Shown here piece after piece: positions 1,543 through 17,778 of a stretch of DNA of 17,778 nt (the stretch's first letter is position 1; every line of letters begins with the position of its first letter). Position numbers and translations under genes: made by a program. The notes beneath the pieces are model-generated. The model searched no databases. It was given only the letters and a program-made list of their open reading frames with translations, and was not told the origin of the DNA. The DNA lies in the IMG/VR virus record IMGVR_UViG_2711768043_000005, positions 1-17,778 of that record; one strand, given 5' to 3'. This DNA is from a virus (Duplodnaviria; Heunggongvirae; Uroviricota; Caudoviricetes).

Positions 1543-1823
1543 TAGTGCCTCAGATGATCAACCAGACGTGCAACGTTGCCTCTGACAGCCACCAGCACGG
1601 AAAGAAAAATAGTGTTCGCCACGATAATGGGCCATGAGGAATGGGGATAAATCCCACAGAGATAGGCCAACGGAACAGCACTGTATGTAACAGTAATCAG
1701 CCAGGCTAAACGTGAAACCCAAGGACGATGCCGCGAATCACCACGACGATAAAACATCAGAGTAATAACAACACAAGCACATAACAGCGCATTTATAGTT
1801 GCTGTCGGGTCATTTAGCTCCAC
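1542..1823 (-). CDS. Small membrane protein, possible holin or antiholin
   Basis: 93 aa with at least two hydrophobic helices; overlaps the endolysin start and the upstream holin-like gene end. Confidence 0.45.
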   Translation of the reverse strand: MELNDPTATINALLCACVVITLMFYRRGDSRHRPWVSRLAWLITVTYSAVPLAYLCGIYPHSSWPIIVANTIFLSVLVAVRGNVARLVDHLRH

Positions 1824-2196
1824 CTGAACCTCCCCGGCGCGTTATGAGCGCCACCAGCGAGCCGATATCCTGATTATTCAGGAACGTCAGGATTTTAACG
1901 GCTAAAGCAGAGACGATTACGGCACCAATAGCATCCAGAGGTTTATCACTGTATCCGGTCAAGTTCGCCAGCTTGGAGCCAACCAACCCAGAGCAAAGAA
2001 TCCCGGCAATATATGACACGATAAAATATGCCAGTCGGCGCGATGCACTCAGATCTGCAGCTGTTGCTATGTAGAATACAGCCCCTGCAAATGCGCCAAA
2101 TACAACGCCGTAATCAGTTCCGGTCAGCAGTCCATAAACACTGGCACCCGTCAGGGCACCACCAGCCAGCCCAGTACCGGAAATCGGATCGGACAT
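1810..2196 (-). CDS. Holin-like membrane protein
   Basis: 128 aa, Gly/Ala-rich with multiple transmembrane segments; strong RBS (AAGAGGGGG) before the ATG; first gene of the lysis cassette. Confidence 0.55.
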   Translation of the reverse strand: MSDPISGTGLAGGALTGASVYGLLTGTDYGVVFGAFAGAVFYIATAADLSASRRLAYFIVSYIAGILCSGLVGSKLANLTGYSDKPLDAIGAVIVSALAVKILTFLNNQDIGSLVALITRRGGSGGAK

Positions 2197-2237
2197 TTAG
2201 CCCCCTCTTAATTGCTGTTGGTCCTCTCAGAACGAGG

Positions 2238-2269
2238 GGAAACAAAAAAGGCCGCATTAAGGCGGCCTT
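2238..2269 (-). terminator. Rho-independent terminator (minus strand) after the 198-aa gene
   Basis: Perfect 8-bp stem AAGGCCGC/GCGGCCTT (2248-2255 / 2262-2269) with a 6-nt loop, followed on the minus strand by a T-run (plus-strand A-run 2244-2249). Confidence 0.6.
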
Positions 2270-2286
2270 GGTAAGGTATAGTTTTT

Positions 2287-2883
2287 TTAAGATAAACTTT
2301 GATTGATATACTCATGACACCCAAAAATAAAGGCGTTTTGTGCATCAATAAATGACTTTTTTTCTTCCGGAGTAAAATACCCTTTTGTAAAACATACTTT
2401 TAGCGCTTTTTGAAGATCTGCCGTCAGGGTTATCAACTTACAACCTTCCTCATCAGGCCTTATTAATAGAAGTAATTTATTTTTACTTATTTCAGCGGCC
2501 TTTATTGGAACTTGAATCTCCTCAGGGAAAACACCCTTAGCCAATATATCCATATTCTTATTTCCGACCAGATGCCATTGCTCAAATGTGCTGGCCAACA
2601 TAATTACGTCTGTCACATGCTCAGCGCCAGCAAAACGTATTTGTTGCGCCAATTCTTTATTAGTATTCAAGTGAGCCTGTAATGTGGCTAAGGCAAAATT
2701 TTCTTTGATTGCCCTGTATGCAACCCAACCAGTTATTCCTGCGGCAATAACGCCTGCAAGAGCAGTAATGAGTGTTTCAAAAGGAAAGGAAGAACTGATT
2801 TCAATTGGCGGTAATTTTTCTATTACCAAGGTCAACTCGCCAGTAGTTTTTTCGAAAGCGTACGGTACGTTTTGCCAAGTCAT
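2287..2883 (-). CDS. Hypothetical membrane-anchored protein (AT-rich insert between Q-like gene and lysis cassette)
   Basis: 198 aa; AGGAGG RBS 4 nt before the ATG; one predicted transmembrane helix (LITALAGVIAAGITGWVAYRAI); markedly lower GC than neighbours; flanked by terminator hairpins on both sides. Confidence 0.7.
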   Translation of the reverse strand: MTWQNVPYAFEKTTGELTLVIEKLPPIEISSSFPFETLITALAGVIAAGITGWVAYRAIKENFALATLQAHLNTNKELAQQIRFAGAEHVTDVIMLASTFEQWHLVGNKNMDILAKGVFPEEIQVPIKAAEISKNKLLLLIRPDEEGCKLITLTADLQKALKVCFTKGYFTPEEKKSFIDAQNAFIFGCHEYINQSLS

Positions 2884-2911: not shown

Positions 2912-2938
2912 AACAAAAAAACCCGCTCAATGGCGGGC
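2912..2938 (-). terminator. tR'-like terminator downstream of the Q-like gene (minus strand)
   Basis: Stem CCCGC/GCGGG (2922-2926 / 2933-2937) with a 6-nt loop, followed on the minus strand by a run of 7 T (plus-strand A-run 2914-2920). Confidence 0.5.
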
Positions 2939-2989
2939 TCTTAATGTTGTGTTGCTCAGTTCGCTTTAACGTCCCGAGCCTACCACAAT

Positions 2990-3568
2990 TTAAGCACTTT
3001 CTTGCTCACTCTGCAACTTAAATCTGTCGCTATTTGTGCCGAATGCGTCACAAACTGGAGCGTACAGGATCGATTCTGCAAGACTTAGCCAAGTGTCAAT
3101 GCGTCGACGACAGGTGATCAGCGGCCAGTCAGGATGTTTAGCCTGCAGTTCATTGGCCATCTGCAACTTGCTCTTACGAAGACGATACCGGTCAACAATC
3201 ACGCTATAGAGCGATCGGTAGTCATCATTCATCAGTACTGAAGCAATGACACCGTCCACTAACAACCCTTCTTCATCTGAACAGAACGCCAGGCCGCTTT
3301 TATTTTTGCTGTTGAGAATTTCACGCAGGTACGCTTCAAGTTCAGGCTTGGTGATACCCGCTATCTTCATCCGGCGTAGCGCTTCATTGATAGCTGTCTT
3401 GGTGATTTTCCCGGATGCCAGAAGCTGGTTAAACATGTTTCCACCACTACCACCGCCGATATAAGACCAGCGGCCCCACATGCGCAACTTGCCTTGTATC
3501 CAGATACTTTCCAGAGTACGAAGGCGAACCATTTCACCTGATTTGCCAACTTCAGAAGGATTAATCAT
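2990..3568 (-). CDS. Q-like late-gene antiterminator (Phage_antitermQ-type), tentative
   Basis: 192 aa; position directly upstream of a terminator and the lysis genes and directly downstream of a DUF968 gene, as in Qin-type prophages. The call rests mainly on synteny. Confidence 0.5.
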   Translation of the reverse strand: MINPSEVGKSGEMVRLRTLESIWIQGKLRMWGRWSYIGGGSGGNMFNQLLASGKITKTAINEALRRMKIAGITKPELEAYLREILNSKNKSGLAFCSDEEGLLVDGVIASVLMNDDYRSLYSVIVDRYRLRKSKLQMANELQAKHPDWPLITCRRRIDTWLSLAESILYAPVCDAFGTNSDRFKLQSEQESA

Positions 3569-3582
3569 TTAGCATTCTCCAC

Positions 3583-4578
3583 TTACGCCAGTACGCCTAT
3601 TGCCAGCGCACGATCGATAAAACGAAATATCAGCTCCAGCTGGGAGCCATACTTCTCTTCAAATGCCACGGTATCCGCATGCAGCTCGTCGTGATGCTTT
3701 CTGCACAAAGGCAACACAAAGAGGTCATGCGCTTTTGTACCCATTCCACCCTGACCGTGGCCTATCAGGTGGTGGGGATCATCAGCAGGCTTTCCACAAC
3801 ATGCACACGGCTGTGTCTTAACCCAGCGCGTGTACTTTTCATTAACCCAGCGGCGACGTTTCGGGCGTAACATAAAAGACTCCGGCGACTCCGGATCCAC
3901 TTTCAGCGCTAGCACCTTTTTCGCTTTATCCTGGATGATGCTGGTGGCAGGAACCAAAGGCACAAGGTCACTTTCCCGGGTGACAGACGGCACAACAGGC
4001 TTCGGTAATCTCAGAGCCTTACGGGCTGCACTTTCCGGTAAGGCATCCGCCAGGTCATTACGAACCAGCCACCAGCACAGTTCCGGCATTGTCATAACGT
4101 GACTATCATCAAAACCGAGATCCCGACGCACGACAGACAACACCCAGCGAGCACAGTTATCCGTTGCCATTGATTCCAGCCGTTCCGTGAACTGATCGCG
4201 CAGCTGGTTATCGCAGTGCCAGCACAGACGGATTGCGCCCGGAGCGTGTCGCATTGTGGTCATGTTCTCGCTGTGCCAGTCGGAATGAGGCCACTGGCAG
4301 CCTTTTTCACGAAGTAACCAGCTTTCAAGACATTCCACGCCACCAGCACGACGGATCACTGCCTCATTGCGGAACACGGCCCGAACGGCAGGATCATCCG
4401 CCAGCGGTTGTGATGCAGCCGGAACGGCACCACTGGCGAAAGATGAATAACGTTCCGGCTCAGGCTCCAGCAGGACACGCCCCTGCATAAACAGGGGCAT
4501 CAGCTCTGAACCTGGCCTGAACAATACGATCCCCATACGCGGGGCAATTTCAGGGGTCAGTAGTGCTCTCACGGTCAC
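3583..4578 (-). CDS. DUF968-family protein with C-terminal Cys/His (HNH-like) motif, YdfU-like
   Basis: 331 aa; C-terminal CACCGK...HHLIGHGQGG...CRKHHDELH motif; GTG start 2 nt after the KilA-N gene stop. Confidence 0.7.
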   Translation of the reverse strand: MTVRALLTPEIAPRMGIVLFRPGSELMPLFMQGRVLLEPEPERYSSFASGAVPAASQPLADDPAVRAVFRNEAVIRRAGGVECLESWLLREKGCQWPHSDWHSENMTTMRHAPGAIRLCWHCDNQLRDQFTERLESMATDNCARWVLSVVRRDLGFDDSHVMTMPELCWWLVRNDLADALPESAARKALRLPKPVVPSVTRESDLVPLVPATSIIQDKAKKVLALKVDPESPESFMLRPKRRRWVNEKYTRWVKTQPCACCGKPADDPHHLIGHGQGGMGTKAHDLFVLPLCRKHHDELHADTVAFEEKYGSQLELIFRFIDRALAIGVLA

Positions 4579-4579
4579 C

Positions 4580-5389
4580 TCAATGAACGGTATCGAGCAG
4601 CTTTAACAGCTCAGGGAATCGGGATTCGAAGAAGTGCGGCTGCGTCTCGCGCGGATTTGCGGGACTGGTGATGTTCTTGCCGAACATGCAGCCTTTCGCT
4701 GTCAGCGACCAGAATTTTTTGATGTTGTTAATCGCGGTACGGCTGTATCGTTCGCGTTGTTCAACGATCCCCAGCTTCGCCATCTGGTGATATGCCTGAT
4801 TAGCCGTCAGGCGGATACCATACTGTTTCAGCAGTGCACTCAGCGACAGCGTAGGGCGACTTGAGCCATCAGGCGCGTCAGCAGGAGCATCAATGGCATA
4901 GCGTGGTGCCAGATTCGGTAAGCCAACAGCCTCCTGGAGTTTCTGACAGGCCCCAAGCACAGATGAGTTAGACAGGTTTAACTCCCGGCGCATAAAGTCC
5001 AGCAGAATCACGCCAGCCTGCATCTTGTCAGCAGCCTGTCCGGATAATTTTTCAGGTGCGCTGGTTACCATATCGAAAGTACGGATCACCTTCAGATGGA
5101 ATGACGGGCTGATCCACATTGCATAGGCATACACCAGTTCTTTGCAGACATACGTTCCCCGTTCATTTCCCCCATGAATCACACTCACCGGGTCAACACC
5201 CAAATTCTGGGTGTTGGTCAATTCATGAACAAGTTCAACAGTTTGTTGGCTGGAAAGAAACTTTCCTGGCTCCTTGGTTCTGGCATTTGCACCAGATGCT
5301 ACTGCTGCGCGATGCAGATCGTTCAGGCTGTAACGTCCATAAGCATCACGACGAACTTCAATACCATCAATGACCATCAGATTATTCAT
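4580..5389 (-). CDS. KilA-N domain protein (N-terminal KilA-N, C-terminal uncharacterized domain)
   Basis: Start placed at MNNLMVIDG, preceded by AGAGGAG RBS; N-terminal region matches the KilA-N DNA-binding domain pattern by eye. The computed ORF extends 11 codons further upstream with no RBS. Confidence 0.7.
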   Translation of the reverse strand: MNNLMVIDGIEVRRDAYGRYSLNDLHRAAVASGANARTKEPGKFLSSQQTVELVHELTNTQNLGVDPVSVIHGGNERGTYVCKELVYAYAMWISPSFHLKVIRTFDMVTSAPEKLSGQAADKMQAGVILLDFMRRELNLSNSSVLGACQKLQEAVGLPNLAPRYAIDAPADAPDGSSRPTLSLSALLKQYGIRLTANQAYHQMAKLGIVEQRERYSRTAINNIKKFWSLTAKGCMFGKNITSPANPRETQPHFFESRFPELLKLLDTVH

Positions 5390-5408
5390 ACTTCGTTTCT
5401 CCTCTTGA

Positions 5409-5798
5409 TCAGGCGGCTGCACCCGCCGTTTTCTCGTACTTACTGATAGTGATCTCGACCTTCCCTTCCGGGATAACCGGTCCCCACTCCACCAGCATTC
5501 TTTTCACCTGACTGTCGTCTTCCCACACCCCCGCGTGGGTCAGGGCGTCAAACAACGCCTTGTTATAGTTGTCCAGATCGCGGATCCTGTTATCCGGAGG
5601 AAACAACACGATCTCCACTGAAGCAGGTGCCGACGTTGGTTTCGGCAGACGACGTAACTGTTCAACTATTGCTGCGCACGCCGCGCTCTGAAATTTTCGC
5701 CCCGCCGCGCTTATCAGGCTCTTACCTGCAAACGCCCCTTTGTTGGGGTGTCGCCAGTACGTGTTCACGCTGGGCGGGAAAGGCAGGATCAGCTTCAT
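5409..5798 (-). CDS. rusA: Holliday-junction resolvase RusA
   Basis: 129 aa; sequence closely resembles E. coli RusA (conserved RDLDN motif); 4-nt ATGA overlap with the upstream gene. Confidence 0.85.
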   Translation of the reverse strand: MKLILPFPPSVNTYWRHPNKGAFAGKSLISAAGRKFQSAACAAIVEQLRRLPKPTSAPASVEIVLFPPDNRIRDLDNYNKALFDALTHAGVWEDDSQVKRMLVEWGPVIPEGKVEITISKYEKTAGAAA

Positions 5799-6121
5799 AC
5801 TTTCAGGCCCCTCTTATGTAACCAGTGGGTTGCACGCAGCCTGGCGTTTTCCTCACCGGCAAGCAGTGAGCGGATAATCCCGACCGCCTCGCTGTCGTCG
5901 TCCTTCACCGCGGTATGAAGCGTGATGCCCCGGGCCACGCCACGCTTTATCGTGATGACGCCTTTTTTCTCCAGTGCGCGAAGATGCTCCACCGCTGCAT
6001 TCACTGAACGGTATCCCAGCATGGTTGCCACCTCCTGATTGGTTGGCGGGAAGCCACGTTCTTTCTGATAAGAAATCAGCATATCCAGCACCTGCTGCTG
6101 GCATTGAGTTAACGTCGTCAT
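5795..6121 (-). CDS. LexA N-terminal DNA-binding-domain-like winged-helix protein, no S24 peptidase domain
   Basis: 108 aa; residues 1-70 align by eye with the LexA DNA-binding domain (LexA: ARQQEVFDLI...[36 protein letters not shown]; here: QCQQQVLDMLISYQKERGFPPTNQEVATMLGYRSVNAAVEHLRALEKKGVITI). Confidence 0.7.
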   Translation of the reverse strand: MTTLTQCQQQVLDMLISYQKERGFPPTNQEVATMLGYRSVNAAVEHLRALEKKGVITIKRGVARGITLHTAVKDDDSEAVGIIRSLLAGEENARLRATHWLHKRGLKV

Positions 6122-6771
6122 GCCGCCATCTCCCTGACCAGTTTTTCCGCCTGCTGGCGAACCTGCGCCAGAAAGGCCTCACCACATGCCTCAAGTTCAT
6201 CGCGCCCGATATAGCTGATTGCCGATCCCTTCCAGGTCTTATCGAAAACAGCAATAGCACCAGCGAAGAAAGCGCCTGTCGGCACCTGCTTCTCATCCTT
6301 CGGGATAAACCAGACAGGCAGTTCAAAACCAATACGCCCGCGAATAAAAGCAATATGGTCTGCATCTTCCGGCCACCACACTTCGCTGGTGGCAGCTTTG
6401 ATCAGGAAAACATAACGCCCGCCCTTATCACGCATGGCACTGGCATGTTTCATGATGTAACGCATGCCGGTGATGTATTGCCCCTCATGCTGACTGGCGC
6501 GGCTGTATGGGGGATTACCAAAGGCAGCACCTTTAAGCTCCGCAAGACGTTCTGACCAGTCATGCGCCAGCGCGTTGTCTTCCGCCGTGTAATACGCAGC
6601 ACATTTGGTGTTATCACCGTCAGTGAACAGATCCAGAACAAACGGGCCAAACAGGGTGTTAATTCCCCAGAAAATGTTGTCCGGCGTGCGCCACTGATCG
6701 CCCACTTCCTTCAGTTCATGGGCTGGTTTGTTCCGCAGTTCCACCAGCGCCTGGCAATATTTATTACTCAT
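6118..6771 (-). CDS. Phage N6-adenine DNA methyltransferase (Dam-like)
   Basis: FGNPPYS motif (the N/DPPY catalytic motif of amino-methyltransferases). ATG at 6771 forms a TAATG stop/start overlap with the upstream gene; the longer ORF (GTG at 6804) would overlap that gene. Confidence 0.8.
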   Translation of the reverse strand: MSNKYCQALVELRNKPAHELKEVGDQWRTPDNIFWGINTLFGPFVLDLFTDGDNTKCAAYYTAEDNALAHDWSERLAELKGAAFGNPPYSRASQHEGQYITGMRYIMKHASAMRDKGGRYVFLIKAATSEVWWPEDADHIAFIRGRIGFELPVWFIPKDEKQVPTGAFFAGAIAVFDKTWKGSAISYIGRDELEACGEAFLAQVRQQAEKLVREMAA

Positions 6772-7265
6772 TAAGCCCCCACGTAATTCCCTGACAGATA
6801 CCACTCTTCACCCGATGCAGCGCGCTTGCTGCTTTTCCGTAAGCACCGCTCACGACGCACCAGAAAATTGTTTCGTTCTGGCTGGGAGTGGCTTTCACGG
6901 AATGCCGCCATCCACACGGTTGCAGCACGACGGTATAAGCCCCTGGACTCCAGTTCTTCAGCCTGGCGGGTCAGGCACAAAATCACCCGGGTGTCGTTAG
7001 TGCCGACATAGAAATTGCGCACAGGTCTGGTTTCACGAACTGGTTGTGGTTCCGGCTCCTGCGCTCTCTCAGTCAGGCGCGGGAAATGTCTGCGTGTATC
7101 CCCTTCACAACGGTGAGCCACACGCCCACTCTGACGTAACTTGCTTGCTGACTGCAGAACGCGCTGCCGTGAGTAACCTGCAAAAGCATCCGCAATGTCT
7201 CCGGAAGTACACCCCGGATGGGCTTCAATGAATTTCTGAACGTCATTTAACAGACTCATGATCAC
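6771..7265 (-). CDS. Winged-helix plus PerC-like domain putative transcriptional regulator
   Basis: 164 aa; C-terminal segment RGLYRRAATVWMAAF...FLVRRERCL resembles the PerC/Pch family signature (GLWRRAA..W...L.RR..C) as recalled; 4-nt overlap with the upstream O-like gene. Confidence 0.5.
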   Translation of the reverse strand: MIMSLLNDVQKFIEAHPGCTSGDIADAFAGYSRQRVLQSASKLRQSGRVAHRCEGDTRRHFPRLTERAQEPEPQPVRETRPVRNFYVGTNDTRVILCLTRQAEELESRGLYRRAATVWMAAFRESHSQPERNNFLVRRERCLRKSSKRAASGEEWYLSGNYVGA

Positions 7266-8203
7266 CCCCTGAATCCTGCCGGGATCTGGCTGTAGTCCAC
7301 GTTGTCGTAACTGGATTTGAAGTACGGGTCTTCGCGTTTTTCGGTGTACGTGCTTACGGACGGCGATAAGCGCAGGGAAAGCTCATCCCATTTTTCCCGC
7401 AGCTTCGACGGGCTGAGCACGTTACGGCACCAGAACGGATCGCGGCTGACGCGGCTGTACATCTCGCAGATTTGTTTGTGAGTACGACCATCCTGCACAC
7501 ACATCAGGCGAATTTCGTTTGCCCAGGCTGTCCAGTTCGGTTCTTTGGGACGAACCACCTCGCCGTCACATTCGGCAGCCAGCTCGTACAGGGCGATGAT
7601 TTTTTTCCAGAGCCACTGTGCGCAGGTCAAATCATCCTGCGTCCCCCACTGGCGCTTTTTAGGGCTGAATACAACCGCATCAGGATGGCGAGTTAAAAAA
7701 TCCTGTTCATCCGTCTGCGTGTCCGGTTGCGAAGCGTCCGGACGAGAAGGTTTTTTATCTGACGGATCATGTTTTGATTTTACTGACGGATCCCCGCCAG
7801 ATTCTGACGGGTGAAAACCCGCTTTTTTGCCAGATTTCGACGCATCAAATTTTGACGGGTCAGATTTTGATGCGTCAGATTTTGACGGGTCAGAATCTGA
7901 CAGTTGAGAAAATGCCGCTGCCTGAAGCTTCGCAACGTTAAGCTGATAAACATTCGACGCATTGCGGTTACCCTGGCGACGCGCCTTACGCGTTAACCAG
8001 CCTTCTGCTTCCAGCCGTGCGATAGCCGTTCTGACGGTACTCATCCCCGCGCCAATCTGACGGGCAATGGTTTCAATTGATGGCCAGCACACACCTTCGT
8101 CATTACTGAAATCAGCCAGGCGGGCCATAATTGCCACGCTGGATAATTTCATGCCTGACGCTGCGCAACCATCCCATACATAGCCGGTTAATTTAGTGCT
8201 CAT
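7262..8203 (-). CDS. Replication initiation protein, lambda O-like, with internal low-complexity linker
   Basis: 313 aa; N-terminal winged-helix-like region, central SDSDPSKSDASKSDPSKFDASKS linker encoded by a DNA iteron array, C-terminal domain; sits after the cII-like gene as O does in lambda. Confidence 0.55.
   Translation of the reverse strand: MSTKLTGYVWDGCAASGMKLSSVAIMARLADFSNDEGVCWPSIETIARQIGAGMSTVRTAIARLEAEGWLTRKARRQGNRNASNVYQLNVAKLQAAAFSQLSDSDPSKSDASKSDPSKFDASKSGKKAGFHPSESGGDPSVKSKHDPSDKKPSRPDASQPDTQTDEQDFLTRHPDAVVFSPKKRQWGTQDDLTCAQWLWKKIIALYELAAECDGEVVRPKEPNWTAWANEIRLMCVQDGRTHKQICEMYSRVSRDPFWCRNVLSPSKLREKWDELSLRLSPSVSTYTEKREDPYFKSSYDNVDYSQIPAGFRG
7836..7895. repeat. Iteron array (tandem ~15-bp repeats TTTGAYGSGTCAGAT) inside the O-like gene; putative origin of replication
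   Basis: Direct repeats at 7851-7865, 7866-7880, 7881-7895 plus a related unit at 7836-7850; further TGACGG motifs at 7760, 7784 and 7805. Confidence 0.5.
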
Positions 8204-8212
8204 GACCGACCT

Positions 8213-8551
8213 CTATTTCCCTGAATTTACGACGAAACTGTTCGAGCGGACTGAAGCACTCATGCTCATAGCCTTCGCGGAGGTAGATAACCCGTTGTGT
8301 TTCCGGTTCCCAACGAATGACTCTGACGGGCACTCCGTAGTGATCTTTGAACCAGCGGTTAACTTGTCGCAAAGGACTGTCTCCTTCTGCCGGTTGAAAT
8401 CACCCACAGCCCACTCTGCAAAGCTGTGGGTTACAATTTCCCTGTCACCTGGTACATTTACTGCATAGCAATACTCCACCTTCGCTTTTCCACCCGGTAC
8501 AGGAAGCGCAATCAGTTGCGAGCGACGGTAGTGTGTTGTTAAACTGTTCAT
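8213..8551 (-). CDS. Hypothetical protein
   Basis: 112 aa; ATGA start/stop overlap with the upstream cII-like gene and GGAGA about 10 nt upstream; no recognisable domain; an overlapping plus-strand ORF (8196-8468) makes the call uncertain. Confidence 0.4.
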
Positions 8552-9132
8552 GCGTTAGTTTCTCCACAGTCACGACACGCCACGGCGCCCGGAGCTGCAC
8601 ACTCGCGGGCGTCATTACTTTCTGAAATGCAAAAGATTTTGTAGACCAGTGCTGCATGCTCCTGCAGCTTCGAAATTGAGAGATATAGCTCGTCGTTAAT
8701 TGCTGTTTTCTCATGCGGTTCCACTACACCGTCTTCGATTGCTGAACGAATCTGTTTTGAATAACTGCCGATCTGTTCAATGACTTCCAGCAGACGCTGG
8801 TTAATATCGGCGTTGTCCACATCCTCGACGTCAGGAAGAGACACAAATACGCCATTTGCAGACTGCGCCACAGCATCAGCAATGAAGTGAGTGCCACCAG
8901 CACGCTGTAAAACCATTGCCCATCCCAGCGGGAAAATCTGATCGCCATCGGCACGAAGGCGGTTAAATAATGCGCTCTCTGTTACATCCAGCCAGTCAGC
9001 AGCTTCAGCGTAACCCCCCGGCAACGCTGCGATAGTTTTTCTGACAGCTTTCACGTACCACTTAGGCTGTTTTTCTACTTTCCAGTGATGCTTACCCACG
9101 GCTATCTCCTTAAAACTGTGGTTACTTTTCAT
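8548..9132 (-). CDS. cII-like / YdaT-like regulatory protein (start uncertain)
   Basis: Follows the cro-like gene; start placed at the first in-frame ATG (MKSNHSF) since the longer ORF overlaps cro by 80+ nt; family assignment is from memory and tentative. Confidence 0.45.
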
Positions 9133-9370
9133 CTGATGAATCTTTAATCTTTTGAAAAATATCTGGACGTAATTTTTCTTTTGATATGCCAGTGGTCTTT
9201 TCAATGAATATCGAGAGCTTTGCAGGGGGACGCTTTTCTCTGTTCAACCAGTTCCAGACATGTTGTTGCTTTACTAAATGACCGCTGCTGGCTGTGAGCT
9301 TCCGAGCCAATTCTGATTGACCACCAGCCAGAGCGATTGCCTCCGATAAGGCTAATTGCTCAGGTGTCAT
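9122..9370 (-). CDS. Cro-like HTH regulator (YdaS-type)
   Basis: 82 aa; AAGGAGA RBS before the ATG; HTH-like segment GGQSELARKLTASSGHLVKQ; divergent from the CI-like repressor across an operator-rich spacer. Confidence 0.65.
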   Translation of the reverse strand: MTPEQLALSEAIALAGGQSELARKLTASSGHLVKQQHVWNWLNREKRPPAKLSIFIEKTTGISKEKLRPDIFQKIKDSSDEK

Positions 9371-9505
9371 AGCTTTCTCCTTTTTAGGTAGTTAAGTTGT
9401 TACGAGTTGCAAGAATACAACATTAACAACTTTTATCACAACTTTTAGGTGTTGGAAAGCTAAAACATAAAGTTGTAACCTCATCAAAAAAGAGAGGGAT
9501 ATGTT
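9371..9505. promoter_or_regulatory. OR-like operator/promoter region between cro-like and cI-like genes
   Basis: Repeated GTTGT/ACAAC half-sites (AAGTTGT at 9394 and 9471; ACAACTT at 9426 and 9439). Candidate minus-strand promoter TTGTGA (9436-9441) / TATTCT (9412-9417); candidate plus-strand promoter TTGGAA (9452-9457) / TAACCT (9476-9481). Confidence 0.55.
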
Positions 9506-10192
9506 GTGAAAACACTGGCAGAACGATTAAAGATAGGTAGAGAGAAAGCTGGCATGAGCCAAGCTCAACTAGCTGAAAAAATTGGACTTTCACAACAATC
9601 TGTAGCCAAAATAGAGAATGGCGAAACTCTACAACCGCGCAAAATTAAAGAAATTGCAAAAGTTTTAGGTGTATCACAAAAGTGGTTACAACTTGGTATT
9701 GAAGACAACGCATCCATACCTGATCTTGTTGTAAAAGAAGCAGAAAGCACCGCATTAGACCCCGATATTTTCGTAAACATTCCTGTTTTAGATGTCGAGT
9801 TATCGGCAGGTAACGGATGTCTGGCTGAAATAGTTGAATCAGCTATTGACTGGTTTCCGTTAAGAAGAGCAGATTTGAGAAAATCTGGCGTATGTGCATC
9901 TAATGCCAAGATCGTAAAAATATGGGGGAACAGTTTATTACCGGTTCTCAATAATGGAGATCTTGTTGCCGTTGATATTTCTCAAACCGTTCCTATTCGT
10001 GATGGCGATCTTTATGCCGTACGAGATGGTGTATTGCTAAGGGTTAAAATACTTATCAACTTACCTGACGGTGGCTTGATTCTTAGAAGCTTCAACAAAG
10101 ATGAGTACCCAGATGAAATACTCACCTTTGAAGATAGACGAGCCAGAATTCATGTGATAGGTAGGGTATTCTGGTCATCGCGAACTTGGTAA
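9506..10192 (+). CDS. CI-like prophage repressor (N-terminal XRE-type HTH, C-terminal S24 LexA-like peptidase domain)
   Basis: 228 aa; GTG start with AGAGAGGG RBS; HTH (MSQAQLAEKIGLSQQSVAKIENGE); Ala-Gly cleavage-site context (LSAGNG); S24-like Ser (GNSLLP) and Lys (LRVK). Confidence 0.85.
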   Translation: MKTLAERLKIGREKAGMSQAQLAEKIGLSQQSVAKIENGETLQPRKIKEIAKVLGVSQKWLQLGIEDNASIPDLVVKEAESTALDPDIFVNIPVLDVELSAGNGCLAEIVESAIDWFPLRRADLRKSGVCASNAKIVKIWGNSLLPVLNNGDLVAVDISQTVPIRDGDLYAVRDGVLLRVKILINLPDGGLILRSFNKDEYPDEILTFEDRRARIHVIGRVFWSSRTW

Positions 10193-11065
10193 TGCATCGA
10201 AAAGCATTTCTTCAGAAATAATTTTAAGTTTTGCACCATTATCATCCCTATAAGATATAGCCTTTTCGATCTTCCTTCCGTGACTTGAGAATTTCCAATC
10301 ACGGGAGGAAAGCGTCCCAATTACTAAAAAATCCAACTTTTGAGTAATTCCACTACTGATGTTCCCACCAGCATTTTTAATCAAATTTTCAACTACGGCT
10401 CTCTTTCCTGCAACAAAAGTGCCTGTAAGACAATAGGTTTTACCCTCTAACTCTATCGAAGCCCCTACATCAATAGGCAGCCTGGTCGCCAAACCATCCA
10501 CCACCCCACTTTCCAAGTCACATCCTGTGAAGTCTACTAATGCCTTATGTAGAGTTAAACTCTCATCTTCAGTAATAACACCATCTTTAAGAATTTCCTT
10601 TACAAGTGCATAAAGTTTTTTTCCTGGGTAGTTGTTCTTCAAAGCTCCATTTTGCTCAAGCCACCAATTAAGATATCTTATTTCTTCTTGAGTTAAGTTC
10701 CGATCAGCAATTAATCCTTTACATAGTCCATTAAGTAAATGGACATCTACATCCTTGGAGTAAAAATCAATTTCAGGGATATCAAGAATTTCCCTCTGTA
10801 TTTGGAGAAGGCTATTTTTAAGGTCATCACGTTCTTCTGATGTGATTATTCCATCCGCAAGAATATCCGACACCCGTGCTGATAGACTTTTTATAACTCC
10901 ATTATTGATAATCTGCTTTGCTTCAAGTAACCATGTATCTAAGTAAAGAACCTCCTCTTCACGGACAACTCCATCTGCAATGATTCCATCAATGATGCTA
11001 ATCAAGTTAGCAAATAACTTGTCCCGGTTCTGTGTGTAATTAAAAGCGTAAAGCGCGTCTTCCAT
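10175..11065 (-). CDS. Protein with tandem TerB-like ADG-x-IT-x-EE helical repeats and a C-terminal BRCT domain
   Basis: 296 aa from ATG at 11065 (GGAGG RBS 4 nt upstream); four repeats of the form [IL]xDG[VI]ITxEExxxL; C-terminus GKTYCLTGTF...GGNISSGITQKLDFLVIGT...AKLKIISEEMLFDAL resembles the ligase-type BRCT fold; AT-rich; 3' end overlaps the cI 3' end by 18 bp. Confidence 0.75.
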   Translation of the reverse strand: MEDALYAFNYTQNRDKLFANLISIIDGIIADGVVREEEVLYLDTWLLEAKQIINNGVIKSLSARVSDILADGIITSEERDDLKNSLLQIQREILDIPEIDFYSKDVDVHLLNGLCKGLIADRNLTQEEIRYLNWWLEQNGALKNNYPGKKLYALVKEILKDGVITEDESLTLHKALVDFTGCDLESGVVDGLATRLPIDVGASIELEGKTYCLTGTFVAGKRAVVENLIKNAGGNISSGITQKLDFLVIGTLSSRDWKFSSHGRKIEKAISYRDDNGAKLKIISEEMLFDALPSSR

Positions 11066-11099
11066 ACAACCTCCTTTTTTTGATAATCCTTGCACTCCT

Positions 11100-14930: not shown

Positions 14931-15280
14931 TGGAGCCATACAGCCTCACACTCGATGAGGCCTGTCATTTTCTCAAGATATCCAGACCGACTGCCATTAA
15001 CTGGATACGCACAGGGCGTCTTCAGGCAACACGCAAAGATCCCACTAAGAATAAATCTCCTTACCTCACAACACGACAAGCCTGCATTGCGGCTCTTCAG
15101 TCTCCGCTGCATACTGTCCAGGTGAGCGCGGGTGATGGCATAACAGAGGAAAGAAAATGTCACTCTTCCGCAGAGGTGAAATATGGTACGCCAGTTTCAC
15201 ATTGCCGAACGGTAAAAGATTTAAACAGTCTCTTGGAACAAAGGACAAAAGGCAGGCGACAGAACTCCATGACAAGCTAA
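14930..15280 (+). CDS. xis: Excisionase-like HTH protein (AlpA/Xis type)
   Basis: N-terminus [28 protein letters not shown] is a typical excisionase/AlpA HTH; immediately upstream of and overlapping int by about 124 nt in another frame; 3' end uncertain. Confidence 0.55.
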
Positions 15281-16320
15281 AGGCTGAAGCATGGCGGGTC
15301 AGCAAACTTGGTGAAATACCTGATATAACGTTCGAGGAAGCGTGTGTCAGGTGGCTTGAAGAGAAAGCACATAAAAAATCACTGGACGATGACAAAAGCC
15401 GGATCGGATTCTGGCTTCAACATTTCGCAGGAATGCAACTAAGAGACATTACTGAATCAAAAATTTATTCAGCAATGCAGAAAATGACGAACCGGCGTCA
15501 TGAGGAAAACTGGAAACTCAGGGCAGAAGCATGCAGAAAAAAAGGGAAACCTGTTCCAGAATACACGCCAAAACCAGCGTCCGTTGCAACGAAGGCTACG
15601 CATCTTTCATTTATAAAGGCCCTACTAAGAGCCGCAGAGCGTGAATGGAAAATGCTGGATAAGGCACCAATTATTAAAGTGCCTCAACCAAAGAATAAAC
15701 GGATCCGCTGGCTGGAGCCCCATGAAGCACAAAGGCTGATTGATGAATGTCCGGAGCCATTAAAGTCTGTTGTTGAATTTGCACTGGCAACAGGCTTAAG
15801 ACGCTCGAACATCATCAACCTTGAATGGCAACAAATAGATATGCAGCGCCGGGTGGCATGGATAAACCCGGAAGAGAGTAAATCAAACCGCGCAATTGGC
15901 GTTGCGCTGAATGATACTGCATGTCGCGTATTGAAAAAACAAATCGGGAATCATCACCGTTGGGTATTTGTGTACAAGGAAAGCTGTACCAAACCAGACG
16001 GAACGAAAGCGCCAACAGTAAGGAAGATGCGGTATGACGCAAACACAGCCTGGAAAGCGGCGCTGAGACGGGCTGGTATTGATGATTTCAGATTTCACGA
16101 CTTGAGACACACCTGGGCAAGTTGGCTGGTTCAAGCCGGAGTCCCGTTGTCAGTTTTACAGGAAATGGGAGGCTGGGAGTCTATCGAAATGGTTCGTCGA
16201 TATGCTCACCTTGCACCTAATCACCTTACCGAACACGCACGGCAAATAGACTCGATCCTGAACCCATCGGTCCCAAATTTGTCCCAGTCAAAAAATAAGG
16301 AAGGTACTAATGATGTGTAA
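15157..16320 (+). CDS. int: Tyrosine-type site-specific integrase
   Basis: 387 aa; C-terminal catalytic region [39 protein letters not shown] (R..H..Y signature); abuts the tRNA 3' end. Confidence 0.9.
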
Positions 16321-16334
16321 CTTATTGATTTTAA

Positions 16335-16410
16335 TGGTGCCGATAATAGGAGTCGAACCTACGACCTTCGCATTACGAATGCGCTGCTCTACCAACTGAG
16401 CTATATCGGC
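16335..16410 (-). tRNA. thrW: tRNA-Thr (anticodon CGU)
   Basis: Minus-strand 76-nt sequence GCCGATATAGCTCAGTTGGTAGAGCAGCGCATTCGTAATGCGAAGGTCGTAGGTTCGACTCCTATTATCGGCACCA with D-loop, anticodon loop TTCGTAA, T-loop GGTTCGA and CCA end. Confidence 0.9.
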
Positions 16411-16524: not shown

Positions 16525-17778
16525 TTACGCACGAATGGTGTAATCACCAATGCCGATCCACTTGTAAGTGGTCAGTGCTTCCAGCCCCATTGGGCCACGC
16601 GCGTGGAGTTTTTGTGTGCTTACCGCCACTTCCGCACCCAGACCAAACTGGCCGCCGTCGGTAAAACGCGTAGAGGCGTTAACGTAAACAGCGGACGAAT
16701 CCACTTCGTTAACAAAACGCTGGGCGTTGCGCATATCGCGGGTCAGGATCGCATCGGAGTGTTGTGTGCCGTGTTCACGAATATGGGCGATGGCATCGTC
16801 AAGATCGCTGACGATTTTGACGTTCAAATCTAATGACAGAAACTCATCGTCATACTCTTCGGCTTTAACAGCAACCACCTTCGCAGGGCCTGCCTGCAAC
16901 TGCGCCAGTGCAGCTGCATCTGCGTGTAATGTCACGCCGCTTTCCGCCATTTGTTTGCTTAATGCGGGCAGGAAGCTATCGGCGATGTTTTTATTCACCA
17001 GCAACGTTTCAACCGTATTACATGTGCTCGGACGCTGAGTTTTCGCGTTGACGATCACTTTTAATGCTTCAGCGATCTCTACACTTTCATCAACGTAAAT
17101 ATGGCATACGCCTATACCACCTGTGATCACCGGGATTGTCGACTGTTCACGGCACAGTTTATGCAAACCAGCGCCACCACGCGGGATCAGCATGTCGATG
17201 TATTTATCCATACGCAGCATTTCACTGACCAGCGCACGGTCAGGATTATCAATCGCCTGCACGGCACCCGCCGGTAAGCCGCAGGATTTCAGGGCGTCCT
17301 GAATCACCGCCACCGTTGCAGCGTTAGTGCGACACGTTTCTTTGCCACCGCGCAGGATCACCGCATTACCGGTTTTCAGGCACAGCGAAGCGACATCAAC
17401 CGTCACGTTCGGGCGCGCTTCATAAATCACGCCAATAACCCCCAGCGGTACGCGACGACGCTCAAGACGCAGGCCGCTGTCCAGTACGCCGCCATCGATT
17501 ACCTGCCCCACCGGATCGGCGAGGTTGCACACCTGACGTACATCGTCGGCAATGCCTTTCAGCCGTGCGGGCGTCAGTGCCAGACGGTCAAGCATCGCTT
17601 CGCTAAGGCCATTGGCTCGCGCGTCAGCAACATCCTGGGCGTTAGCGTTGAGGATGATTTCGCTTTGTGCTTCCAGTTCATCGGCGATTTTTTCCAGCAC
17701 GCGATTTTTTTCGCGGCTGGAGAGTTGCGCTAATTTATACGAGGCTTGCTTCGCGGCAATGCCCATTTGTTCCAGCAT
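16525..17778 (-). CDS. proA: Glutamate-5-semialdehyde dehydrogenase (gamma-glutamyl phosphate reductase)
   Basis: 417-aa ORF starting exactly at the window end ([21 protein letters not shown]...) and ending ...GDYTIRA; recognised as enterobacterial ProA. Confidence 0.95.

Follow-up and report, generated by a model that had tools for sequence, protein, structure and literature searches.

The stretch of viral DNA analyzed here (IMG/VR record IMGVR_UViG_2711768043_000005, class Caudoviricetes; 17,778 nucleotides (nt), referred to throughout as the window) carries on its minus strand, between the genes for a Dam-type methyltransferase and a RusA resolvase, an open reading frame (ORF) for a LexA-like protein of 108 amino acids (aa). 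This protein was found to combine the winged helix of LexA with a predicted C-terminal helical hairpin, which stands in place of the S24 domain. The gene is real, selected and widespread, and its identity is already recorded in RefSeq and PHROGs, so that it is not novel as an object. As to its function, the reading that we favour, tentatively and with clear reservations, is that of a RecA-proof LexA-type repressor, which would be made in lytic growth and would bind CTGT-type (SOS-box) sites.

In Pfam searches, residues 1-65 of the protein matched the whole of the LexA_DNA_bind profile (PF01726, positions 1-65/65) with an E-value of 2.9e-19 and a score of 69 bits, against a cutoff of 23.7. A phmmer search of PDB sequences retrieved LexA proteins only (E 7e-16 to 5.5e-06), the best match being the LexA N-terminal domain, and BLASTP against E. 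coli LexA gave 43% identity over 90 aa (E 7e-22). An AlphaFold2 (AF2) model, which had a mean predicted local distance difference test score (pLDDT) of 80.7 and was built from a shallow input alignment of 22 sequences, showed helices at residues 6-22, 28-35, 40-52, 75-87 and 93-103 and strands at 56-58 and 66-68. By Foldseek, residues 1-68 superposed on the LexA structures 1lea and 3jso (DNA complex) at 1.1-1.3 Å over 67-70 residues. The similarity to the LexA winged helix, which the initial annotation had put forward from the sequence, is thus genuine, with a full-length profile match and a predicted structure about 1.2 Å from LexA structures.

The autocleaving domain, said from the outset to be lacking, is indeed missing. 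The protein ends at residue 108 and gave no match to Peptidase_S24 (PF00717) in a Pfam search, and the TIGR00498 lexA equivalog model aligned over profile positions 1-91/203 only, at 70.7 bits, i.e., below its cutoff of 110.95. Judged by its sequence, the 108-aa protein is not a LexA orthologue, in that the protease/dimerization domain and a conserved cleavage site are both missing. Given that there is neither a protease domain nor a conserved Ala-Gly site, RecA* is predicted to be unable to remove the protein. The description of the protein as a DNA-binding domain only was correct as regards the protease and incorrect as regards a sole domain, since a conserved helical hairpin occupies residues 75-103 at the C-terminus.

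In the family alignment, the hairpin followed the consensus EAVxxxRxLLAxxxxARxRAxxxLxxxG, in which A97 and L101 were invariant, and it was kept down to ~40% identity. No Pfam or PDB match was found for this part of the protein, and Foldseek gave nothing convincing for the tail. We regard the hairpin as a possible dimerization or partner-binding module. HMMER and BLAST alignments placed the segment RSLLAGE against LexA GRVAAGE, with A88-G89 opposite the self-cleavage site Ala84-Gly85; in the AF2 model, however, this segment closes a helix and passes into a turn instead of lying in an exposed strand-loop. A remnant of the cleavage site was considered and rejected, because Ala88 is replaced in relatives (LLANE, LLVGE, MVEGE, LVNGE, IDDQP). 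From the alignments and the model, we read A88-G89 as a likely vestige of the lexA linker that now serves as a helix end and turn, and not as a cleavage site.

We next consider distribution and selection. The whole protein (residues 1-108) aligned with the entire PHROG 362 profile ('transcriptional repressor'; positions 1-106/106; E 1.3e-59), and the protein carries the RefSeq name 'LexA family transcriptional regulator'. Of 5426 complete E. coli genomes, 2233 (41%) had the gene, at up to four copies per genome, and it was >95% identical in 50 phage records, amongst them SfV (orf42), mEp460, and Shiga toxin (Stx) phages of the Stx2a and Stx2c types. A protein-level search added SfII, SfIV and cdtI at 96-97% identity, and relatives with 40-50% identity came from mEp390 and Klebsiella phages. 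Citrobacter, Salmonella salamae and Hafnia were also represented amongst the source names, the host range being drawn from source names and phage records only. The Stx records with the gene comprised 15 Stx2c-converting and three Stx2-converting phages, the latter named Stx2a_1447 and Stx2a_WGPS2. With the PHROG 362/RefSeq group (SfV orf42 and the homologues of mEp460, SfII, cdtI and Stx2c phages) we are dealing with the same protein, without difference, and copies of the PHROG 362 type were 96-99% identical in the 50 phage records and 2233 E. coli genomes. A limited literature search found no experimental study of the LexA-like phage protein, its annotations being by homology only. Amongst predicted viral structures, small phage proteins (65-150 aa) with the LexA DNA-binding fold were common, and several were so annotated.

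The 80 close loci yielded 43 distinct alleles, all of them intact (327 nt), and the ratio of nonsynonymous to synonymous polymorphism (pN/pS) was 0.074 overall. These two results indicate strong purifying selection and argue that the gene is functional. By region, pN/pS was 0.02 in the winged helix, 0.14 in the linker and 0.20 in the hairpin. The alleles P0024 and P0034 have an internal out-of-frame stretch (e.g., KKRRHHDKAWRGPGITL) before returning to frame; this stretch matches the alternative frame of the window, ORF 5853..6365, and probably reflects compensated frameshifts or sequencing errors.

The residues that contact DNA bear directly on the likely target. E. coli LexA is reported to achieve direct readout of the CTGT half-site through S39, N41, A42 and E45 (PMC11442139), and E44 is added to the list of contact residues in a report that cites a nuclear magnetic resonance (NMR) model (PMC13416735). 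Alignments showed S39, N41, A42 and E45 of the LexA-like protein to be identical to those of E. coli LexA, with LexA E44 replaced by V. The wing residues R64-G65-I66 and S39 were invariant, and N41 nearly so, in the family down to 38% identity. Because the four contact residues and the RGI wing are kept, LexA-type sites would most likely be recognized; the kept residues support recognition of a LexA-type half-site by this sub-type, and binding of SOS boxes by the protein is plausible. Compared with the N-terminal domain of E. coli LexA (residues 1-84), the phage protein thus has the same winged helix (1.1-1.3 Å, ~50% identity over 68 residues), the same S39, N41, A42, E45 and RGI, and a flexible linker after the wing. 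It differs in the lack of the S24/dimerization domain, in the change of E44 to V, and in an Ala-Gly pair that is not conserved in the family. Its C-terminal end is LKV, whereas VAA is left on the LexA N-terminal fragment, and its gene lies in an early lytic operon, whereas LexA is autoregulated from an SOS-box promoter.

The operon position was read from the sequence of the window. The LexA-like ATG (6121-6119) overlaps the methyltransferase TGA (6120-6118), and the LexA-like TGA (5797-5795) overlaps the RusA ATG (5798-5796), so that the start/stop coupling to both neighbours that had been described holds in the window. Amongst relatives, coupling held for RusA: of the 145 loci in which both genes were found, 127 showed the ATGA overlap, including members with 46-60% identity and a 158-aa variant with a different C-terminal domain. 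It did not hold for the methyltransferase, as the upstream neighbour in the 78 close loci was Dam in only 52 and PerC/YfdN in 24, and other genes intervene in divergent loci. No promoter-like site was found on the coding (minus) strand from the immunity region to the LexA-like gene; together with the start/stop overlaps, this places the gene in the early-right operon. The immunity region is the presumed source of the transcript that carries it, and we infer that expression is to be expected only after derepression. An internal dam-orf-rusA promoter, such as is annotated in SfV, was rejected for the window, as it has no promoter-like site on the coding strand.

The mechanism that we tentatively favour would run as follows. 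A small sequence-specific DNA-binding regulator would have been derived from the N-terminal part (winged helix and linker region) of a gammaproteobacterial LexA, with the self-cleaving S24 domain swapped for a short helical hairpin. It would be produced from the delayed-early rightward operon only after inactivation of the cI-type repressor, i.e., at a time when host LexA is presumably being destroyed by RecA*. Its targets would be host SOS boxes together with the near-consensus boxes of many sister phages, and the protein would persist while LexA is cleaved, with SOS-box promoters staying or becoming closed in lytic growth. The hairpin would probably give the dimerization or partner contact that otherwise comes from the LexA C-terminal domain. 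In operator-bound LexA, the two N-terminal domains share an extensive interface (PMC3159453), and therefore two such domains may be able to pair on a box even when the LexA C-terminal domain is missing. A more specific form of this mechanism, namely that of a RecA-proof LexA surrogate that re-closes SOS boxes on prophage induction and acts as a brake on SOS cross-induction, seems to us unlikely; such a brake would shut the host SOS regulon, colicins, and the LexA-controlled antirepressors and morons of co-resident prophages.

A number of results weigh against the repressor reading. Firstly, the statement of the initial annotation that there is no canonical box was confirmed by our scan, in that no exact CTGT-N8-ACAG was found in the 17,778-nt window, and none upstream of the gene; CTGT/ACAG dyads with spacings of 0-16 were likewise not enriched in the window. 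As there is no box in the window, any target of this copy would have to be located in the host or in another part of the prophage. Secondly, no family member had Glu at position 44 (the residues there being V, T, A, F, L or Y), and several sub-types from the same kind of module in related phages had D, S, L or I at position 45; given these varied positions, specificity may have drifted and need not be that of LexA. Thirdly, amongst 147 related viral loci carrying the gene, which formed our comparison set, 90 had no box nearby, and the post-Q box described below occurred both with and without the LexA-like gene (29 and 10, respectively, of the 39 box-bearing contigs with enough upstream sequence). 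Finally, the hydrophobic moment of the two hairpin helices was not above that of shuffled sequences, which leaves the dimerization step weak. Other scans of the window were also negative. SOS boxes with one mismatch numbered 10, against 6.2 expected, which was not significant, and a 20-nt consensus-score scan showed no excess over shuffles. No candidate palindrome was noticed in the interval from Q to the lysis genes, which was read by eye with no systematic scan.

Near-consensus SOS boxes were present in 57 of the 147 gene-bearing loci, at three accessory positions, i.e., in the linker codons of another cI allele type, at the start of the post-Q methyltransferase moron (SfV orf48), and in the gap between RusA and a KilA-N-type gene. 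From this we conclude that the phage group is wired to host LexA. An obligatory dependence of the gene on phage-borne SOS boxes was rejected, as each occurs without the other.

These boxes deserve description in their own right. In 28 loci, the coding sequence of another cI-type repressor allele contains a near-perfect SOS box, at about codons 71-77 between the helix-turn-helix (HTH) and S24 parts. The coding-strand sequence of this box is TACTGTATGTAAAAACAGTA in L008 (2043-2062; ORF 1579..2271, minus strand) and TACTGTATATAAAAACAGTA in L094 (2189-2208; ORF 1722..2423, minus strand). This box is kept between two diverged alleles despite their differing local protein sequence, and the window's own cI is without it. 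The post-Q box, TACTGTAAAAATAAACAGTG, was found in 23 loci, and in L007 (= SfV) it is located at 8907-8926, at the start of orf48; variants occurred in the divergent (non-type-A) loci L084-L088, L126, L148 and L107. The gene at this box is a moron that lies between the Q terminator and the holin and encodes a DNA methyltransferase of 350 aa. In five relatives (L054, at 5765-5784, and also L029, L056, L069 and L079), a gap of 150 base pairs between RusA and KilA-N holds the SOS box TACTGTATTTATGAACAGTG, and the KilA-N-type gene at this box looks like a LexA-controlled antirepressor-type gene. The KilA-N gene of the window overlaps RusA and has neither gap nor box.

The alternative that survives best is that the protein is a phage-specific regulator with an operator of its own, unrelated to SOS boxes, for which the LexA ancestry provides only the scaffold; a late or an accessory promoter might, for instance, be activated or repressed by it. 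We hold this to be possible, if doubtful. It has a precedent in gp6 of phage GIL01, a truncated LexA homologue that binds a palindrome and activates the late promoter P3 (PMC6182141); the site bound, GaCACAnnTGTGaC, is not the host LexA box. Variation at recognition-helix positions 44-46 in related enterobacterial-type phages (VEH, TDM, ASH, FEH, AEH) is as would be expected for diversifying specificity, and the gene does occur without any SOS box nearby. However, the window copy keeps all four LexA base-contact residues, and the 17.8-kilobase window holds no repeated or palindromic candidate site, its AAGTTGT/ACAACTT repeats looking like cI/Cro operators. Moreover, an operon of overlapping genes offers few intergenic targets.

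GIL01 gp6 is the only characterized functional analogue that we found. Like the protein studied here, it is a phage LexA DNA-binding domain without a protease, encoded in an early operon beside replication genes. For activators of the gp6 type, the palindromic site overlaps the -35 of a late promoter. It differs in its length of 66 aa and its lack of a hairpin, and it belongs to a Tectivirus with a Gram-positive (Bacillus) host. No counterpart of its key residue K38 or of its site was found for the LexA-like protein, and BLASTP of the latter against GIL01 ORF6 (L151:4350-4550) gave no alignment at E <= 100. Because there is no pairwise similarity and gp6 is without a hairpin, the two proteins appear to be separate captures of the LexA N-terminal domain, from different LexA lineages. 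A winged helix followed by about two C-terminal helices, which there form a dimerization module, is also seen in YtrA-type GntR regulators. These gave weak whole-chain matches in Foldseek (6sbs, 3by6, 4r1h and 3tqn; E ~0.04), with a root-mean-square deviation of ~10 Å and no GntR Pfam match, and they serve as an analogy for two-helix dimerization, not as a family assignment.

Other C-terminal arrangements were observed amongst relatives. The 158-aa variant (L084-L091; match 6001..6477) shares the LexA winged helix, its recognition helix being SPNAAASHLKAL, but the ~90 aa that come after the winged helix at the C-terminus are unrelated and had no Pfam match; its gene is still ATGA-coupled to RusA. 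In several metagenomic proteins (P0131, P0132, P0149, P0152, P0153, P0156 and others), two tandem LexA_DNA_bind domains occur per chain, without S24, as confirmed by Pfam for P0131 and P0149. Such a chain would, to judge from its domains, be a covalent two-headed LexA-type binder.

A different proposal is that the protein assists the recombination module by binding DNA, e.g., by targeting or modulating RusA, and is not a transcription factor. The gene does lie adjacent to and 5' of rusA, with the recurrent ATGA overlap reported above, and mEp390 shows the same gene order, with the LexA-like gene 5' of RusA. We nonetheless consider this role improbable, since most phage records with RusA do not have the gene (~61 of the 234 with RusA relatives carry it). 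The gene behaves as an optional cassette, in that Salmonella phage 118970_sal3 (RusA 81% identical) and Yersinia phage YeP1 have Dam ATGA-coupled directly to RusA, with no LexA-like sequence in the same module. Start/stop overlaps are, furthermore, general in the operon, and in a Klebsiella relative the genes that follow are a small ORF and DUF968. This 40%-identical relative, in Klebsiella phage ST846-OXA48phi9.1 (L150, 1-969), is located two genes downstream of a dinI homologue and is followed by a 67-aa ORF and then DUF968, not RusA.

Still further from what we would expect is a function through protein contacts with the host SOS machinery, whether as mixed dimers with LexA, as a decoy for RecA*/ClpXP, or by trans-cleavage at Ala88-Gly89; this we judge to be very improbable. 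The alignment does run through RSLLAGE/GRVAAGE, and the TIGR00498 match reaches position 91. However, the C-terminal dimer domain is absent, Ala88 is not conserved, and the segment is predicted to be a helix end plus turn. The stable dimer interface of LexA lies in its C-terminal domain. The mixed dimers with LexA that had been suggested would, if formed through that domain, be without basis, as it is absent here; only a weak contact between the N-terminal domains on DNA is conceivable. Lastly, that the gene is a decaying, functionless remnant of a captured lexA, as the truncated architecture and the frameshifts or truncations in some database entries might suggest, is hardly credible in view of the low pN/pS, the 80/80 intact close loci, a family that including the tail is kept to ~40% identity, and the occurrence of the gene in 41% of complete E. 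coli genomes.

The coordinates of the gene, its parts and its neighbours are given in Table 1. The window is an SfV-like lambdoid prophage at tRNA-Thr(CGU), adjoining proA; the attachment site and the end of the prophage can be recognized from the tRNA, integrase and proA genes, an arrangement also seen in the E. coli chromosomes that matched best. The LexA-like gene is not an S24 repressor of the lambda CI type (HTH plus S24, at the immunity locus), a separate cI-type gene filling the immunity role. The minus-strand order is CII-like gene, 112-aa ORF, replication gene, PerC/YfdN, Dam, LexA-like gene, RusA, KilA-N, DUF968/HNH and Q-like gene, all in the early-right operon; a moron and then the lysis genes follow the Q terminator. 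The LexA-like gene thereby falls within a nin-like stretch bounded by the replication gene and the Q-like antiterminator. PerC homologues activate virulence genes in pathogenic E. coli. In PADLOC, the LexA-like protein received only a weak, irrelevant match, with no defence or anti-defence membership, and the upstream methyltransferase matched Type II methyltransferase models.

Table 1. Features of the window that bear on the LexA-like gene and its surroundings.
Feature	Coordinates	Strand	Remarks
LexA-like gene	5795..6121	-	108 aa; ATG 6121-6119, TGA 5797-5795; exact entry of the ORF list
Winged helix-turn-helix, LexA-type, codons 1-68	5918..6121	-	Pfam, AF2 model, Foldseek, pN/pS 0.02
Recognition helix VNAAVEHLRALEK, codons 40-52	5966..6004	-	Alignments to LexA
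Flexible linker, low confidence, codons 69-74	5900..5917	-	pLDDT <50 at residues 71-74
Helical hairpin in place of S24 domain, codons 75-103	5813..5899	-	Helices 75-87 and 93-103; pLDDT ~88
Shine-Dalgarno-like AGGGAG	6130..6135	-	8 nt 5' of LexA-like ATG, within end of methyltransferase gene; read from sequence
Dam-type N6-adenine methyltransferase, upstream gene	6118..6804	-	228 aa; PF05869 E 4.8e-45; TIGR01712 E 5.8e-76
RusA Holliday-junction resolvase, downstream gene	5409..5798	-	PF05866 E 6e-15
KilA-N protein	4580..5422	-	Early-right operon
DUF968/HNH protein	3583..4578	-	Early-right operon
Q-like antiterminator	2990..3568	-	Late control assigned to this gene
Terminator-like hairpin, directly 3' of Q-like gene	2917..2942	-	Downstream limit of early-right operon
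PerC/YfdN-like ORF	6771..7265	-	164 aa; PerC domain E 5e-09; overlaps methyltransferase start by 34 nt
Replication protein	7262..8203	-	Early-right operon
CII-like gene	8548..9204	-	Pfam; first in the listed early-right order
Divergent immunity region, between cI-type gene and early-right operon (cro-like, CII-like)	9205..9505	.	Pfam for CI and CII; AAGTTGT/ACAACTT operator-like repeats
cI-type repressor, HTH_3 + Peptidase_S24	9506..10192	+	Pfam; 3.4 kilobases from LexA-like gene
Integrase gene	15157..16320	+	Beside tRNA
tRNA-Thr(CGU)	16335..16410	-	Only Rfam match in window
proA	16525..17778	-	Beside tRNA

Two further ORFs of the window are recorded here. An AT-rich ORF of 198 aa (2287..2883, minus strand) without a Pfam or PADLOC match is flanked by the Q-like terminator and, ahead of the holin, by another terminator-like hairpin, i.e., at the position of the SOS-box methyltransferase moron of SfV. 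A 306-aa protein (10175..11095, minus strand) with a C-terminal BRCT domain (E 1.4e-06) gave a weak PADLOC match to PDC-S48; its gene is convergent with the cI-type gene, the 3' ends overlapping by 18 nt, and the gene may be expressed in the lysogen and serve an accessory or defence role.

What the protein means for these phages depends on its target; a precedent for the concept as such has already been published with GIL01 gp6. If the protein acts on an operator of its own, it would be one more lambdoid early regulator. If, as in the repressor reading, it binds SOS boxes, a large share of E. coli lysogens would carry a LexA look-alike that RecA cannot remove, and the SOS response would have an extra, phage-controlled layer. 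Effects on cross-induction of co-resident prophages and on SOS mutagenesis in induction could follow, with a possible effect on differences between Stx phage types in induction and toxin yield. Variation in the early region of Stx2 phages has been linked, by correlation only, to the level of toxin production (PMC4645166). Were the protein a RecA-proof surrogate of LexA, it could influence prophage competition and the output of toxin phages.

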